Made by a program: the position numbers and the translations under genes. The notes beneath the pieces were generated by a model. That model did not search any database and was not told the origin of the DNA. It worked only from the letters and a program-made list of their open reading frames with translations. 37,551 nt of DNA from a virus (lineage: Duplodnaviria > Heunggongvirae > Uroviricota > Caudoviricetes), in the IMG/VR virus record IMGVR_UViG_2778261670_000003; one strand, 5' to 3'. Position 1 is the first letter of the stretch. Each line of letters starts with the position of its first letter. Of the stretch, positions 1,135 through 34,696 are shown piece after piece.

Positions 1135-1656
1135 TTACCTTAATTTATCAAGCTCTCGTTTATTTCTTTTATCATGTATATCATTAAGAAATAATATATT
1201 ACTAGCAATGATACTAAATAACGCTATTATTTGTAGATATACTAATAACGCTGTGATAAAAAATCCAAACTTGCAGAACACGTGCTTATGCAAGGAAATG
1301 AAATCCAGATTTGAAAATATAGGTTTCGTTAAATTTATTATAACAATAGAAAATATTACAATAGCTGAAATTATAATGGTTTTCACTATCAGCGTAATTC
1401 GCTCAATATCTTTTTCTGTTTCCTTATGATAGTTTATACTAGTTATTGTTGATGGCTTTACAATTGAACTTACAGCTGCAGGGTAAATATATGCAAGCCA
1501 AATACCTGCAATAGTGAAGATCATTGCAGAAATGTTTTGCAAGGTAGATAAAATATCTTTTATATCTGCATACGTATATTTGTCTCCGAACAAATAAGCA
1601 ATAGCTATAATTGTTAGGAGAAAACATATGTGCAAAATTTTAGGTTTTATAATCAT
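1135..1656 (-). CDS. Small integral membrane protein (about 4 predicted TM helices), unknown function; second gene of AT-rich cargo cassette
   Basis: Four long hydrophobic stretches in the translation. AGGTG SD 6 nt upstream of ATG at 1656. An alternative GTG start at 1665 overlaps the upstream gene. AT-rich relative to phage backbone. Confidence 0.7.
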   Translation of the reverse strand: MIIKPKILHICFLLTIIAIAYLFGDKYTYADIKDILSTLQNISAMIFTIAGIWLAYIYPAAVSSIVKPSTITSINYHKETEKDIERITLIVKTIIISAIVIFSIVIINLTKPIFSNLDFISLHKHVFCKFGFFITALLVYLQIIALFSIIASNILFLNDIHDKRNKRELDKLR

Positions 1657-1657
1657 A

Positions 1658-2860
1658 CTATGCACCTATTTTATGAATCTGCACTGCTGTATCATTATCA
1701 GCTTCTGGTTGTTCTATTATATCTTCATTTTTAAAACAATTCACCAAATCATTTCTATGAGCTTTTACTACACTCATTAAATATGAAGAAGAGTAATGTT
1801 TGTTTCTGTTAGAAAGGTCAACGTGAATTTCATGGCGATAAACATATTCATCTAACCAAGTAGTTGAACCATTTTTTCCATTTATTTTGAATCCGATGCG
1901 TGCGTGATCATTCCCTACATTCTCATTGTTGTTTTCTGTATCTTCTGAAATAGGATTGTGGTTTTCTATATATTCATCGATGAGTTTAGTGAACTCTTCA
2001 GGCGTAGGCGTTCCTTCGACTAATAATTCAACGCGATGTTTTTTTGATAAAATAGGAGAGCTTCTTGAGAAAACATCTCCAACTGCATCAAATAACTTCT
2101 GCCATTTTTCCCGTGTATCAGGTATGTTTGTTTCTATTACGTCATGGTAAACAATGTGAGTGATTTTTTTACACAGTTCTTCTATGTTTGCTCCACTCGT
2201 GATCATCCTTGTTTGTTTAGTCTGTACTTTAAAAACTAAACTTTCATCATCACCTTGAGAAAAAAGAACACGTTTGTAATGAACGTCTTCAGGTGAGTCA
2301 TTACGAGGACGAGTCATATCTATGACTTTTTTATTAGGATGCTCCATCCTAAAGTCAACGTATGCTTTAATATAATGACAGAAAAGATCTGTATCCGTAT
2401 TAGAACTTGGGAATCGTATGGATGCAATTTTGTTATATTCTGGAATTACCCAATAGTAGCAAGGTACGCCCCAGATATATTTACCGCCACCTTGAGTATC
2501 AGAGGCGGATACAACATTATCTGAAGTGCCGTCAATCTTACTTTCAGCATCTATACCTTGAATATTTCCAGAGTTATCACCAAGCGTTTTCCAGATAACA
2601 AATAGATAATCTCCTGTCGTACTGTCATATGAAATATTTTTACAGTATGCTTTTGTTCTTCTATTATTATCCTTTCCCCATGGAACAGATTGTTCAACTG
2701 TTCTTGAACAGATCCAGCTATGTAAGTTACACAGAACATGGGATAAGTTCTTTTCGACTAATTCCGGCGATTTACCTTGTCGTATTTTATAAAGGCCAAA
2801 CATTTCTAAATCAAAAAATGTTATAATGCCGCGTTCAGTTTTAAAGTTGGTTTTACTCAT
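1658..2860 (-). CDS. Hypothetical 400-aa soluble protein, unknown function; first gene of AT-rich cargo cassette
   Basis: Long uninterrupted ORF with ATG at 2860. No motif I can assign to a known family. AT-rich. Immediately followed by the membrane protein gene. Confidence 0.75.
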   Translation of the reverse strand: MSKTNFKTERGIITFFDLEMFGLYKIRQGKSPELVEKNLSHVLCNLHSWICSRTVEQSVPWGKDNNRRTKAYCKNISYDSTTGDYLFVIWKTLGDNSGNIQGIDAESKIDGTSDNVVSASDTQGGGKYIWGVPCYYWVIPEYNKIASIRFPSSNTDTDLFCHYIKAYVDFRMEHPNKKVIDMTRPRNDSPEDVHYKRVLFSQGDDESLVFKVQTKQTRMITSGANIEELCKKITHIVYHDVIETNIPDTREKWQKLFDAVGDVFSRSSPILSKKHRVELLVEGTPTPEEFTKLIDEYIENHNPISEDTENNNENVGNDHARIGFKINGKNGSTTWLDEYVYRHEIHVDLSNRNKHYSSSYLMSVVKAHRNDLVNCFKNEDIIEQPEADNDTAVQIHKIGA

Positions 2861-2940: not shown

Positions 2941-3822
2941 TTAATTCGAAATGATTGTGCTTCTTATGCATGCAACTACCTCGATATCAGAAAATGCACA
3001 TTCAAAGTAAGTTTCTTTACTTCTGATATTTATCATACCTTTAGGTAGCCTAGTAATTTGTCTGACGGAATAGGTTCCATCAATATTAATTAACCAGTAT
3101 CCATCTAATACATCAGAAAATTTCTGATCACAGATGTATGTCACTAAACCATCCTGAACGACAATTGGTGCTGAAAGATTAGCGGGTAAAAATGACGAAT
3201 CGAAAATATATGAGCCACTCTCAACCATTTTGCCTGCATTGAGATGAAATTTAGGCAGTTCTTTTACCGATGTTGTGAGAGCATTGTGCTCGCTGCCTTG
3301 TCCAGTGGCTAGCCATAAAAGAGAATTTCCTGTTTCCAACGAACATTTTATGATCCAATCAGCCGGGAATGTGTCTCGCAAATATCTATTTGCCATAGTG
3401 CTTTTAGATACATTCAGATGGTCGGCAAGTTCTTGTCTTGTTTTAAAGCCATACGCTTTCATTAGCCTGTCTATTGCATCACGTCCGCCTGAGTCCAAAT
3501 TCAGATCGTTCCCAATTGGGGACTTCAGTGTGGTGGCTTGGGAAACGTGCTGAACCTTTGATGCAGTTGCCTTTGACATGACCGGAGCCTCAGTACTCTG
3601 AGGGAATGGTACGCCTTTTCCGAATGAGAGCCACTCGATAGATGCACCCGTTTCAATTGCACACTGAATTACCCAGTCAGCAGGAAATACGTCACGCATC
3701 CAGCGCGTGCCCATAGTGCTTGCAGATACGTTGAACTGTTCGCACAGAGCTTGCCTTGTCTTGAATCCATACGCTTCAAGCATGCGCGTTATGACTGCTT
3801 GTCCTCCGTTTTTGAAATTCAT
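2941..3822 (-). CDS. Immunity repressor, CI-like, with a tandemly duplicated N-terminal DNA-binding domain
   Basis: Two homologous about 65-aa repeats (…YGFKTRQ…STM…R…FPADW…ETG…WL…G). Position between int and cox/apl, divergent from the lytic operon. No obvious S24 Ser/Lys cleavage motif. Confidence 0.8.
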   Translation of the reverse strand: MNFKNGGQAVITRMLEAYGFKTRQALCEQFNVSASTMGTRWMRDVFPADWVIQCAIETGASIEWLSFGKGVPFPQSTEAPVMSKATASKVQHVSQATTLKSPIGNDLNLDSGGRDAIDRLMKAYGFKTRQELADHLNVSKSTMANRYLRDTFPADWIIKCSLETGNSLLWLATGQGSEHNALTTSVKELPKFHLNAGKMVESGSYIFDSSFLPANLSAPIVVQDGLVTYICDQKFSDVLDGYWLINIDGTYSVRQITRLPKGMINIRSKETYFECAFSDIEVVACIRSTIISN

Positions 3823-3947
3823 TTATTACGCCTTTGAGTAATTTTTGGTTGACTCTTCTCAAATGAAGAATTAGTGTGTGCGAAAGTGAACTGAACAGGA
3901 TTAATCACCAGTTACCACACATCTTGTTAAACGAGGAATCTTGCATC
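3823..3947. promoter_or_regulatory. Lysis-lysogeny switch region (divergent pL/pR-type promoters and operators)
   Basis: Intergenic region between divergent repressor and cox/apl genes. TTGACT at 3849-3854 with a weak -10 downstream. Operators not resolved. Confidence 0.4.
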
Positions 3948-4169
3948 ATGGCTCCACATATTTCAATCACCTTAGCTGTCCCATCTGTTTCTATTGAGAA
4001 ATACAGTGAACTGACTGGGTTATCTATCGATACTATCAATGACATGCTGGCTGATGGACGCCTTATTCGCCATCGTCTCCGTAAAGATAAAAAGCGAGAA
4101 AAGGTAATGATCAATATCGCAGCAATGACCGTTGATGCGCTCTCTGAATGCAATTTGAGTATTAACTAG
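3948..4169 (+). CDS. Cox/Apl-like excisionase / transcriptional regulator
   Basis: 74-aa product, first gene of the rightward early operon, SD acgAGGAa upstream of ATG at 3948. Size and position match P2 Cox / 186 Apl. Confidence 0.7.
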   Translation: MAPHISITLAVPSVSIEKYSELTGLSIDTINDMLADGRLIRHRLRKDKKREKVMINIAAMTVDALSECNLSIN

Positions 4170-4201
4170 TTCCATTTTGGGATACATCAGGGGGGTCGAC
4201 T

Positions 4202-4711
4202 ATGTTTGATTACCAAGTTTCCAAACATCCACATTTTGACGAAGCCTGTCGTGCATTCGCACTGCGCCACAACCTGGTGCAACTGGCAGAACGTGCAGGC
4301 ATGAATGTACAGATTCTGCGGAACAAGCTGAACCCAGCTCAACCTCATTTATTAACCGCACCAGAAATCTGGTTGCTTACCGATCTGACTGAAGATTCAA
4401 CGCTGGTAGATGGCTTTCTGGCACAGATTCACTGCCTGCCATGTGTACCGATTAATGAGGTGGCAAAAGAGAAACTGCCGCATTACGTCATGAGTGCAAC
4501 CGCAGAGATCGGGCGTGTTGCTGCAGGTGCGGTATCTGGCGATGTAAAAACCAGTGCAGGCCGTCGTGATGCGATCAGCAGCATTAACTCTGTTACACGA
4601 CTGATGGCGCTGGCCGCTGTTTCATTGCAGGCCCGTTTACAGGCTAATCCTGCGATGGCGAGTGCAGTTGATACAGTGACTGGCCTCGGTGCTTCATTCG
4701 GTTTGCTGTGA
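4202..4711 (+). CDS. cII: Phage regulatory protein CII-like (186 CII family)
   Basis: 169-aa product directly after apl/cox, as in 186-type phages. Confidence 0.7.
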
Positions 4712-4718
4712 GGTGCTT

Positions 4719-4919
4719 ATGCTGACGAAAGAACCATCATTTGCATCGCTGCTGGTAAAACAAAGCCCGGCAATGCACTACGGTCACGGCTGGATCATGG
4801 GTGAGGATGGTAAACGCTGGCATCCGTGCCGTTCACAAGATGAATTGCTGGCAGAACTATCTACGAAAAAACGGGGGAACAAATGGCTATTGAAGGCGCT
4901 GCGGCGACTGTTCCATTAA
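4719..4919 (+). CDS. Hypothetical small early protein (186 Fil-like position)
   Basis: GAGGTG SD at 4710-4715 then ATG at 4719. The ORF track start at 4689 is an upstream extension. Confidence 0.5.
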   Translation: MLTKEPSFASLLVKQSPAMHYGHGWIMGEDGKRWHPCRSQDELLAELSTKKRGNKWLLKALRRLFH

Positions 4920-9109: not shown

Positions 9110-9129
9110 TACTGTAAATATAAACAGTG
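9110..9129. promoter_or_regulatory. LexA (SOS) box TACTGTAAATATAAACAGTG
   Basis: CTGT-N8-ACAG with an AT-rich spacer, about 40 nt upstream of the 9170 ORF. A second degenerate half-site follows at about 9127-9146. Confidence 0.6.
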
Positions 9130-9169
9130 GTTATGTATACAGTATTGTTTTGGTGTCATAGGAGGAAAG

Positions 9170-9358
9170 ATGCAGGACTATTTTTTGGAGTCTTTGAAGC
9201 TCCAGCGCATTGATTTTTTTCTTAAGCTTGTAGCGGCTAGTGAGTGTAGTGATGAAGAGAAGGGGCTGGCTCTGCAGTGGGTTTCTGAATTGACTGATGA
9301 ACTCATGGCAAAAATCAGAAGCCACGAATACAACCGCTCAATGGATGTCATCAGCTGA
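9170..9358 (+). CDS. Small hypothetical protein, first ORF of SOS-controlled module (Tum-like N-terminal part?)
   Basis: Strong GGAGG SD at 9161-9165, ATG at 9170; 62 aa. Confidence 0.5.
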   Translation: MQDYFLESLKLQRIDFFLKLVAASECSDEEKGLALQWVSELTDELMAKIRSHEYNRSMDVIS

Positions 9359-9368
9359 GGTGACTTTT

Positions 9369-9602
9369 ATGCGCATTGAAATAATGATCGATAAAGAGCA
9401 GAAGATTAGCCAGTCTACCCTGGACGCCCTTGAATCCGAGCTTTACCGCAATCTGCGCCCCCTGTATCCCAAAACGGTAATTCGCATTCGCAAAGGTAGC
9501 TCTAACGGTGTGGAACTAACCGGACTGCAACTGGATGAAGAAAGAAAACAAGTGATGAAAATTATGCAGAAGGTGTGGGAGGACGACAGCTGGCTGCATT
9601 AA
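9369..9602 (+). CDS. dinI: DinI-family protein (186 Tum-like C-terminal antirepressor domain)
   Basis: 77-aa product MRIEIMIDKEQ…, similar in length and pattern to E. coli DinI (MRIEVTIAK…). GAGGTG SD upstream. LexA box upstream. Confidence 0.8.
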   Translation: MRIEIMIDKEQKISQSTLDALESELYRNLRPLYPKTVIRIRKGSSNGVELTGLQLDEERKQVMKIMQKVWEDDSWLH

Positions 9603-33290: not shown

Positions 33291-34387
33291 ATTTCAGCTC
33301 TGAACTGCTTAACAAAGGCAACAAAACTCCTGCATTCAGCATCAGTATTGAGGGCAGGGATATCACTACTGTGCTGGATAACCGCCTGATGAGTCTGACG
33401 CTGACGGACAATCGGGGATTTGAAGCGGACCAGCTTGATCTGGAGCTGGACGACGCCGACGGAAAAATCGTGCTGCCGCGCCGTGGTGCGGTCATTACGC
33501 TGGCGCTGGGGTGGAAGGGGCAGCCGCTTTTCCCGAAAGGGGCATTCACGGTGGACGAGATTGAACACACTGGCGCACCGGACCGCCTGACTATCCGGGC
33601 GCGAAGTGCTGATTTTCGTGAAACGCTGAATACCCGCCGTGAAAAATCGTGGCACAAGACCACCGTTGGGGAAGTCGTGAAGGAAATATCTGCGCGGCAC
33701 AAACTGAAGATGGCATTGGGTGAAGACCTGTCGGATAAACCCGTGGAGCATATAGACCAGACCAATGAGAGTGACGGCAGTTTTCTGATGCGGCTGGCGC
33801 GCCAGTACGGTGCTATTGCGTCGGTGAAAAATGGCAATCTGTTATTCATCCGGCAGGGACAGGGTAAAAGCGCCAGCGGTAAACCACTACCGGTTATCAC
33901 TATCACACGTAAGGACGGCGACAGTCACCGCTTTACCCTGGCAGATCGCGGAGCCTACACGGGCGTAATTGCCAGCTGGTTGCATACCCGCGAACCCGCG
34001 AAGAAAGAAAGCACCACGGTGAAGCGTAAGCGCAGGACTAAGAAGCAGAAGAAAGAGCCGGAAGCGAAGCAGGGCGATTACCTGGTGGGTACGGATGAAA
34101 ACGTGCTGGTACTTAATCGCACTTATGCCAACCGGAGCAACGCCGAACGAGCGGCGAAAATGCAGTGGGAACGCCTGCAACGCGGCGTTGCGTCATTCTC
34201 GTTACAACTGGCGGAAGGGCGGGCAGATCTCTACACGGAAATGCCAGTGAAAGTCAGTGGCTTTAAACAGCCGATAGATGATGCGGAATGGACCATTACG
34301 ACTCTGACGCATACCGTAAGCCCGGATAATGGTTTTACGACCAGTCTGGAGCTTGAAGTGAGGATTGATGATTTCGAAATGGAATGA
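33287..34387 (+). CDS. Tail protein D (P2 gpD-like)
   Basis: 366 aa, GTG start overlapping U stop. Confidence 0.85.
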   Translation: MNFSSELLNKGNKTPAFSISIEGRDITTVLDNRLMSLTLTDNRGFEADQLDLELDDADGKIVLPRRGAVITLALGWKGQPLFPKGAFTVDEIEHTGAPDRLTIRARSADFRETLNTRREKSWHKTTVGEVVKEISARHKLKMALGEDLSDKPVEHIDQTNESDGSFLMRLARQYGAIASVKNGNLLFIRQGQGKSASGKPLPVITITRKDGDSHRFTLADRGAYTGVIASWLHTREPAKKESTTVKRKRRTKKQKKEPEAKQGDYLVGTDENVLVLNRTYANRSNAERAAKMQWERLQRGVASFSLQLAEGRADLYTEMPVKVSGFKQPIDDAEWTITTLTHTVSPDNGFTTSLELEVRIDDFEME

Positions 34388-34477
34388 TTCTTCGCAATGG
34401 AGAACTTTTAAGTTTGCAAAATGGAATAATGCGGTATCATTATTGTGAATTTAGCAAAAATGGGGAGAACTCGAAAA

Positions 34478-34696
34478 ATGATGATTTGCCCACTGTGTGG
34501 AAGTGCCGCCCATACTCGCAGCAGTTTTCAGGTATCTTCATTGACCAAAGAGCGTTACAACCAGTGCCAGAACATTAACTGCAGCCATACTTTTGTTACC
34601 CATGAAACTTTTGTTCGTTCGATTGCAACGCCAAAAGAGTCAAATCCGGTTCAGCCGCATCCAATGAAATCAGGACAGGTGGCGCTCTCTCTTTGA
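34478..34696 (+). CDS. ogr: Ogr/Delta-family zinc-finger late-gene activator
   Basis: 72 aa with CPLCG…CQNINC zinc-binding motif. GGGGAGA SD. The ORF track start at 34445 is an extension. Confidence 0.85.
   Translation: MMICPLCGSAAHTRSSFQVSSLTKERYNQCQNINCSHTFVTHETFVRSIATPKESNPVQPHPMKSGQVALSL

Follow-up and report, generated by a model that had tools for sequence, protein, structure and literature searches.

The window analysed here is the whole 37,551-nucleotide stretch of a virus of the Caudoviricetes (IMG/VR record IMGVR_UViG_2778261670_000003). It carries a cI gene that encodes a 186-type immunity repressor with two helix-turn-helix (HTH) domains in one chain. The genes lie in the order int (positions 1-1068), two cargo genes, cI, an intergenic region of about 125 bp, an apl-like gene, cII and fil. 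The identical sequence in Escherichia coli SC475 (RefSeq) is labelled "phage repressor protein CI", and the locus adjoins the phage integrase and the host genes rcdA and ybjJ. The first HTH domain is called D1, the second D2 and the C-terminal domain the CTD:

2941-3822, minus strand: cI gene, two-HTH 186-type immunity repressor of 293 amino acids (aa) (open reading frame [ORF] with ATG start; Pfam PF07022 twice and PF16452; 2fjr, E 2.4e-27; RefSeq WP_001009714.1)
3607-3810, minus strand: D1, N-terminal HTH, residues 5-72, the added module (PF07022; match to the 2fjr N-terminal domain; P0113 N-terminus 84% identical)
3493-3606, minus strand: inter-domain linker, residues 73-110, predicted to be disordered (model confidence, no Pfam family, fast evolution)
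3289-3492, minus strand: D2, second HTH, residues 111-178, in the canonical place beside the CTD (PF07022, E 3.8e-32; end-to-end match to P0005)
2950-3267, minus strand: 186-CI-type C-terminal oligomerisation domain, residues about 186-291 (PF16452; Foldseek match to 2fkd)

The identification as an immunity repressor, made in a first-pass annotation from the sequence alone, was confirmed by the presence of both PF07022 and PF16452 in a 186-like, not P2 C-type, prophage. In the whole protein, PF07022 (Phage_CI_repr) was matched in two stretches (E 4.6e-59) and PF16452 (Phage_CI_C) at residues 189-285 (E 6.7e-26). When the heads were scanned separately, PF07022 was matched by D1 with E 1.3e-26 and by D2 with E 3.8e-32; the middle 29 aa of the linker matched no Pfam family. 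No NCBIfam model covered these two-HTH proteins, and the PHROGs match was the generic "transcriptional repressor" only.

The paralogous repeats that the same annotation had noticed, with quoted peptides corresponding to residues 14-70 and 120-176, are real. BLASTP of residues 1-101 against 102-293 aligned residues 1-70 with 106-175 without gaps, with 38/70 identities (54%; E 8e-32). At the DNA level, identity was 73% across 59 nt, with the copies 318 nt apart, indicating that the repeat is old. An AlphaFold2 monomer model, based on an alignment of 44 two-HTH homologues, contained two five-helix bundles (helices 7-67 and 113-173) with a predicted local distance difference test score (pLDDT) of about 90, followed by a beta C-terminal domain; residues 75-105 between the bundles had pLDDT below 50. 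Domain search and structure prediction both gave an HTH fold for the second repeat, and the observation of two heads therefore stands. D1 alone matched the N-terminal domain of the solved 186 CI (2fjr residues 10-78, E 5e-12). The 2fjr chain aligned to residues 114-284 of the window protein only, in agreement with the first-pass statement that 186 CI has a single DNA-binding domain. The CTD matched that of 186 CI (2fkd) in Foldseek with a template modelling (TM) score of 0.94, a root-mean-square deviation of 1.3 Å and E 4.7e-11.

The two heads had been described as a tandem duplication, and this was not borne out. Residues 1-76 were 84% identical to the N-terminus of the single-HTH CI P0113 (206 aa), compared with 54% between D1 and D2. 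Residues 97-293 matched the complete single-HTH CI P0005 (198 aa) end to end at 74% identity. This match included the N-terminal tail, with MSTSKYPNEIKINPNKGG aligned against ..TTLKSPIGNDLNLDSGG; linker residues 97-110 fall in this tail. The single-HTH domains nearest to D2 were those of P0089, P0083 and P0108 (79%). A neighbour-joining tree was built from 164 HTH domains (68 residues), and its coarse picture alone was trusted. The D1 domains of two-HTH repressors fell into at least four clades interleaved with single-HTH domains, and the window D1 nested among the 206-aa single-HTH proteins. The closeness of D1 to P0113, the correspondence of D2 plus CTD to a whole P0005-type protein and the polyphyly of D1 domains argue that in the window lineage D1 is a heterologous module fused on, and no recent internal copy.

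The boundaries of the added DNA were located by blastn. The P0113-type locus L006, a prophage that shares the rcdA/ybjJ attachment site with the window, matched window 3614-4277 at 71%; DNA homology to its cI breaks off just past the FGKG motif, near codon 70. L100, a backbone relative with a P0005-type repressor, matched window 2943-3458 (CTD and D2) at 75% and 3934-4874 (apl-cII) at 89.5%. Between these flanks L100 had no counterpart of window 3459-3933, paralogous HTH matches only being found. The intervening segment is:

3459-3933, no strand assigned: immunity cassette of linker, D1 and pR/pL operator region (without counterpart in L100; 71% match to L006)

About 475 bp (linker, D1 and pR/pL) stands in for the switch of about 160 bp of the single-HTH relative. 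The alignments show a cassette, related to a different immunity group (P0113 type), joined in frame to the 5' end of a resident single-HTH cI. The D1-linker-D2 module with the switch was also found on three different CTDs (P0001, P0002 and P0003), and therefore the module moves as a unit. CTDs and the double-head module are exchanged independently.

Two recombination breakpoints were noted in the relatives L002 and L003. At 3302, the D2/CTD boundary, P0003-type relatives share D1-linker-D2, switch, apl and cII (91% DNA identity rightwards of 3302) and have an unrelated CTD. At 2983, P0002-type relatives diverge in the last 14 or so codons and downstream only.

As the cassette was joined in frame to a resident cI, the old N-terminal tail, the old start codon with its -35 element and one old operator would now be translated as linker. 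Two putative relics were located:

3573-3579, no strand assigned: TTGACAT, putative relic of the ancestral pR -35 element overlapping the ancestral cI start codon (CAT, Met82) (comparison with L009 and L010)
3508-3523, no strand assigned: GTTCCCAATTGGGGAC, perfect match to the operator consensus of D2-like single-HTH phages, in linker-coding DNA (encodes SPIGN); probable relic operator (consensus scan)

In the single-HTH relatives L009 and L010, the cI ATG overlaps the pR -35 element as GTTGACAT. An operator dyad, such as GTCCCCA-AT-TGGGTAC in L009, lies within the DNA coding for the N-terminal tail in single-HTH relatives. The window reads ATG TCA A..CA TCA AAG..CCA ATT GGG, which fits L009 given two in-frame insertions. 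With moderate confidence, TTGACAT is regarded on this comparison as the relic of the old start codon and -35 element. The GTTCCCAATTGGGGAC site lies 340 bp left of pR, inside cI, and is the positional homologue of the L009 operator. It was the sole match without mismatch to GTNCCCANNTGGGNAC in the 37.5 kb, weaker matches occurring at chance level.

The Met82 codon (ATG, 3577-3579) has a Shine-Dalgarno-like GAGG 8 nt upstream (3588-3591, coding strand). With the ancestral ATG kept, a 212-aa single-HTH isoform made by internal initiation is conceivable. The idea was given a low probability and set aside; the methionine is absent in the sister lineage L003 and unconserved in other two-HTH clades.

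Selection on the parts of the protein was estimated from the ratio of nonsynonymous to synonymous substitution rates (dN/dS). Among 25 unique two-HTH loci, the median dN/dS was 0.06 for D1 and 0.11 for D2. Against L002, L092 and L003, the window D1 had 0-1 nonsynonymous and 5-12 synonymous changes; against L002 and L092, D2 had 0 nonsynonymous and 10-11 synonymous changes. For the linker, 14-23 nonsynonymous and 8-14 synonymous changes separated the window from the closest lineages (dN/dS 0.45-0.63). These ratios indicate that both HTH heads are under strong purifying selection and that the linker is relaxed, evolving almost freely; by the same measure it behaves as a tether. The D2 helix-3 residues S139, S141, T142, R146 and Y147 were invariant in all 44 aligned two-HTH proteins.

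One explanation of the double architecture, that one HTH is a functionless, decaying remnant of a recombination accident, draws on the obvious relics and fast evolution of the linker, and is largely refuted by the purifying selection on both heads (dN/dS about 0.06-0.11; 0-1 amino-acid against 5-12 silent changes in the window lineage) and by the persistence of the architecture in at least 14 full-length 50%-identity clusters, so that it is considered very improbable.

The switch is 186-like, not P2-like, as judged from gene order. By comparison with annotated 186, cI heads a leftward lysogenic operon, lies upstream of int and faces apl-cII, with convergent pR and pL between them; both promoters are predicted by position:

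3849-3877, plus strand: predicted pR, -35 TTGACT (3849-3854), 17-nt spacer, -10 TAGTGT (3872-3877), at the same position relative to the cI start as annotated 186 pR and aligned with TTGACA of L006 and L009
3938-3966, minus strand: predicted pL, -35 TTGAAA (complement of 3961-3966), 17-nt spacer, -10 CAAGAT (complement of 3938-3943), facing pR (positional homology with annotated 186 pL near the apl start)
3856-3871, no strand assigned: candidate central operator CTTCTCA-AA-TGAAGAA in the pR spacer, a weak dyad (4/7), in the same place as 186 TCTCTCA-AT-TGGGAGA and L006 CTTTCCA-AA-TGGAAAG
3826-3841, no strand assigned: candidate left operator TTACGCC-TT-TGAGTAA, a 5/7 dyad 30 bp from the central one, aligned with the L006 GGGAAAGT and L009 TGGGTAC half-sites

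A stringent sigma-70 consensus scan called neither pR nor pL, and both were assigned by positional homology with 186 only. In 186, L006, L009 and L010, which have single-HTH repressors, dyads of the form xxxxxCA-NN-TGxxxxx (7-2-7) were found at pR with 6-7 of 7 positions symmetric, the central one lying in the -35/-10 spacer. The dyads of single-HTH relatives were of the type GTnCCCA-NN-TGGGnAC (P0005/P0089 type) or CTTTCCA-NN-TGGAAAG (P0113 type). The pR region of the window had no strong dyad operator, weak candidates of 4-5/7 only being present. The right arm of the candidate central operator is the arm of an L006 internal site.

CA-NN-TG dyads of at least 5/7 were found in 0/16 unique two-HTH switches, compared with 15/71 single-HTH switches. 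A D2-type site (GTNCCCANNTGGGNAC, with up to 2 mismatches) was absent from the switch in all 33 two-HTH loci and present in 27 of 116 single-HTH loci. Most of the distant single-HTH loci (Xenorhabdus and Photorhabdus) were also without a CA-NN-TG dyad, and the contrast between two-HTH and single-HTH switches is supportive for close relatives only. The first-pass annotation had expected a change of operator recognition. The lack of strong dyads at the window pR, together with the two counts for two-HTH switches, is consistent with such a change.

In the main-clade two-HTH phages (L004, L014, L016 and L122-L146), three direct TGTGA-like motifs were observed at pR, where single-HTH relatives have dyads. 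They are GGCGAAATGTGA upstream of the -35 element, TTATG(C/T)GAAC in the spacer and CCGTTTTGTGAAG after the -10 element, about 29 and 20 bp apart. Translated, the GGCGAAATGTGA motif also gives the conserved TFRH in an N-terminal extension of 22 aa.

Half-sites could not be assigned to heads. Head-specific sites were sought at pB and at the apl-cII junction, and none was found, the sequences there being constant across repressor types. Flanking sites of the 186 type (ATTCAC-N5-GTGAAT) were not recognised in the window. 186 CI represses pB. At the late-activator promoter upstream of the window B homologue (34478-34693), AAATGGAAT repeats resemble the P0113-type half-site. These candidates were rejected: the 160 bp upstream is virtually identical across window-type, main-clade two-HTH and single-HTH phages, and the region is therefore not immunity-specific. 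Unlike 186 pB, the window late-activator promoter does not seem to carry immunity-specific CI sites. Across 80 IMG/VR phages whose cI types differ considerably, this 160-bp region upstream of the B/ogr-like gene (34318-34480) hardly varied. It contains two AAATGGAAT(G/A)AT repeats about 41 bp apart and the palindrome AATAATG-N6-CATTATT.

Two further candidates were dismissed. The FR-like site AGTTCCATTTTGGGATAC at 4168-4185, between apl and cII, resembles a D2-type operator; it is conserved nearly family-wide whatever the repressor type and may be part of pE, and is thus uninformative. A 13-nt inverted repeat (3668-3680 and 4011-4023) is symmetric about pR. About 0.4 such pairs are expected by chance, and its arms are explained by coding (PADWVI in D1 and ELTGLS in apl).

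The interpretation that we prefer, with a probability of roughly 55%, is that the protein has three parts: D1 as an additional HTH module at the N-terminus, a tether of about 40 residues predicted to be disordered, and a complete single-HTH CI made up of D2 and the 186-type oligomerisation domain. D1 would read pR/pL, D2 would hold a second specificity and the CTD would oligomerise. Dimerisation through the CTD, probably with higher oligomers as in 186, would give four HTH heads per dimer. D1 is assigned to the pR operators because it was co-inherited with them and because D2-type dyads are absent; having arrived with its operators, it would be the main reader of the weakly symmetric pR/pL sites and would set the prophage's own immunity. 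D2 would keep the ancestral specificity, its dyad operators being gone from pR. It may bind the leftover site at 3508-3523, add avidity at pR or recognise operators of the widespread single-HTH relatives. Induction would be brought about by a Tum-like antirepressor under LexA control:

9112-9602, plus strand: SOS module, LexA box CTGTAAATATAAACAG (9112-9127) followed by Tum/DinI-like ORFs (LexA-box pattern; tblastn; ORFs)

By tblastn, the Tum-like region was 41% identical to 186 Tum residues 71-145 (E 1e-19), and the module is located beyond the replication gene, as in 186. SOS induction of 186 involves a LexA-controlled Tum antirepressor and not RecA-mediated cleavage of the repressor. The 186 record annotates Tum with "inhibits CI DNA binding", and by analogy induction probably proceeds via the LexA-controlled Tum-like antirepressor. 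The Tum-like region is split over two frames in overlapping ORFs, 9170-9358 (62 aa, like the N-terminal part of Tum) and 9297-9602 (101 aa, with the 41% match). The split may reflect a frameshift in the antirepressor, a natural two-gene form or nested starts as annotated for 186 tum.

Several observations weigh against the tethered two-specificity interpretation. The assignment of D1 to pR depends on the co-inheritance and absent dyads just named, and formation of a 14-mer wheel is assumed from the similarity of the CTD fold alone. The predicted TM score of the AlphaFold2 model was 0.55, and the relative placement of domains in it is unreliable. The candidate half-sites TGAGTAA, TGAAGAA and CTTCTCA are unlike TGGAAAG of the P0113-type relative; therefore, the specificity of D1 is not simply inherited. 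The "recognition helix" SKST[LM]A[NT]RY also occurs in single-HTH repressors whose switches show no CA-NN-TG dyads; therefore, helix identity alone does not fix the D2 target. Finally, the palindrome at 3508-3523 is perfect in the window only and has 2 mismatches in L002 and L092, whose D2 is 99% identical, and in L003. This argues that the palindrome is dispensable, and it is therefore regarded as a relic, possibly still used.

A more far-reaching proposal, which we regard as tentative, is that two-HTH CIs are dual-specificity immunity proteins that arise by cassette fusion. New operators and their cognate HTH would be fused before a resident repressor, D1 giving the new self-immunity and D2 remaining functional. 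Since pR no longer carries D2 operators, this head could instead turn to distal sites or repress single-HTH relatives as they enter, thus causing cross-immunity or exclusion. If true, dual specificity would explain the invariance of the D2 DNA-reading helix across all two-HTH lineages.

An unlikely alternative is that internal tandem duplication produced a single-chain pseudo-dimer, in which D1 and D2 of one chain fill both operator halves, giving asymmetric composite sites and a changed immunity specificity. It accounts for two intact HTH domains in one chain, for the unlike arms of the central pR site CTTCTCA-AA-TGAAGAA and for the absence of strong dyads from all two-HTH switches examined. 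In the main clade, the tail (KxPIExxINxNQGG) recurs in front of D2, as would be expected if tail and HTH had long ago been duplicated in place. Against it, in the window lineage the identity of D1 to the HTH of another phage (84-87%) far exceeds that to D2 (54%), and D1 brought switch DNA of its own. The linker of about 40 residues, disordered and poorly conserved, would impose no fixed geometry, and with a dimerising and oligomerising CTD retained, a single-chain dimer is unneeded for a two-headed binder. The built-in pseudo-dimer of the first-pass annotation thus found no support, and because of the disordered, fast-evolving linker and the retained 186-type oligomerisation domain, a four-headed dimer, perhaps assembled into a wheel, describes the modelled protein better than a compact single-chain dimer does.

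Less probable again is the explanation that D2 is still the operator reader and that D1 is an accessory head with a non-operator role, for example as a decoy or sensor for Tum-like antirepressors, own or foreign, or in modulating oligomerisation. D2 sits in its canonical place beside the CTD and has the invariant helix-3 residues, and the Tum-like SOS module is present, 186 Tum being annotated as an inhibitor of CI DNA binding. On the other hand, the switches of the 33 two-HTH loci contain no D2-type operator within 2 mismatches, purifying selection on D1, HTH helices included, is even stronger than on D2, and D1 was co-inherited with the operator region.

The lytic side of the switch and the neighbouring genes were also annotated:

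3948-4169, plus strand: apl-like gene, 73 aa, first of the lytic operon (ORF; RefSeq coding sequence)
4202-4711, plus strand: cII, 169 aa (PF06892 Phage_CP76, E 3.2e-42)

The apl-like protein of the window had no Pfam match; the homologous 73-aa gene in L006 gave a weak Phage_Cox match. The intergenic element (T)AGTTC(C/G)AT(T/A)TTG(G/A/C)GA between apl and cII (4168-4185) is kept in about 120 related loci, whatever their genus or repressor type. Its position is that of 186 FR/pE, and it may be the core of a CII-dependent pE promoter.

The slot between cI and int (1135-2860, minus strand) holds ORFs at 1658-2860 (400 aa) and 1135-1665 (176 aa). The pair had no Pfam family and matched the PADLOC candidate anti-phage system PDC-M18 (A, E 2e-36; B, E 5e-24). 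The same slot holds an AAA ATPase and a DUF4276 protein in L002, presumably a PARIS-like system, two other hypotheticals in L003 and a single 349-aa protein in Klebsiella phage 4LV2017. Because related prophages carry differing cargo and the window pair matches PDC-M18, the slot looks like a defence hotspot.

Two HTH domains were present in 46 of the 120 best 90%-identity clusters, with about 1,780 member sequences, and in 41/170 fetched loci. The hosts of the two-HTH clusters were E. coli, Salmonella, Klebsiella, Citrobacter, Enterobacter, Kosakonia and Edwardsiella. An exhaustive profile search returned at least 14 full-length 50%-identity clusters with two HTH and no credible case of a three-HTH form. 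When one genome per species was sampled, 2/80 loci had two HTH, and the exact window type was found in about 18 of 5,426 complete E. coli genomes. In the window protein, as in the other members of this group, a single ORF encodes PF07022 twice and then PF16452, and a copy of the single-HTH N-terminal tail (conserved KxPIExxINxNQGG) stands in front of D2. Two-HTH CIs also occur in GenBank Klebsiella phage genomes, such as 4LV2017, labelled plainly "repressor protein CI".

Literature searches returned no description of a two-HTH 186-type repressor. The first-pass annotation had left room for many characterised P2-like repressors sharing the duplication. The architecture is indeed common in P2/186-like prophages and deposited phage genomes, but apparently none of these proteins has been characterised experimentally. 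Given the wide occurrence and the lack of a published description in these searches, the two-HTH CI is an uncharacterised variant of the 186-type repressor and is not unique to the window.

Coliphage 186 is the closest known system. Its CI (PDB 2fjr and 2fkd) shares the HTH family and the C-terminal fold (TM 0.94 to 2fkd), and in both phages cI has int on one side and, on the other, a pR/pL switch with facing promoters that leads into apl, cII and fil. A candidate central operator in the pR spacer and a Tum-like module probably under LexA control are further likenesses. The 186 operators comprise three dyad-symmetric sites at pR and the distal FL and FR, and CI dimers assemble into a 14-mer wheel. 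Unlike 186 CI, the window CI has two HTH per chain and a 40-residue disordered tether, lacks strong pR dyads and is only 31-36% identical in sequence; the window also has two cargo genes between cI and int. The single-HTH CIs of the P0005/P0089 type (197-198 aa) and the P0113 type (206 aa) belong to phages that share backbone and attachment site with the window. P0005 and P0113 have one HTH each and clear 7-2-7 dyads, whereas the window protein would be an in-frame fusion of both types. Phage ESSI2_ev129 was considered as a P0113-type reference and was not useful, its genome organisation being different.

Other two-HTH CIs (290-330 aa), from Klebsiella phages 4LV2017 and ST437-OXA245phi4.2 and from prophages of E. 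coli, Salmonella, Citrobacter and Enterobacter, have the same HTH-linker-HTH-CTD layout and the tail copy before D2. They are 43-48% identical overall to the window protein, however, and their D1, which starts with 22 extra aa (MSTxKxTFRH...), belongs to a different clade. In the switch they are similar to P0089-type phages, the three direct TGTGA-like motifs standing in for dyads.

P2 C is likewise the immunity repressor of a phage of the same family (Peduoviridae) and lies beside convergent promoters. The protein is small, with 99 aa in a single domain, falls in a different family and binds direct repeats, not dyads. In this respect it resembles the direct motifs of the main-clade two-HTH switches. 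Domain content and context point to the 186 type instead of P2 C, the window protein having 186-type domains (PF07022/PF16452) and the company of cII, fil and a tum-like module. Engineered single-chain 434 repressors and natural POU factors carry two HTH heads on a flexible linker, read non-palindromic or mixed half-sites and are without an oligomerisation domain. In contrast, the CTD is retained in the window protein, and the tandem heads would add to dimer-based recognition instead of replacing it.

The 186 CI wheel is the textbook alternative to the lambda switch, and mechanistic studies of it have, to our knowledge, always taken each subunit to have a single DNA-binding head. A repressor that occurs naturally and widely with two unlike heads per subunit raises the questions of how a wheel reads operators that have lost their dyad symmetry, whether one repressor can hold two specificities and by what route new immunity types emerge with no non-functional intermediate on the way. 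An unusually clear record of the fusion is preserved in the linker as relics of the former start codon, promoter and operator. Annotation pipelines label these proteins "CI", and predictions of immunity group and superinfection exclusion from repressor similarity would be wrong if the heads are not treated separately.

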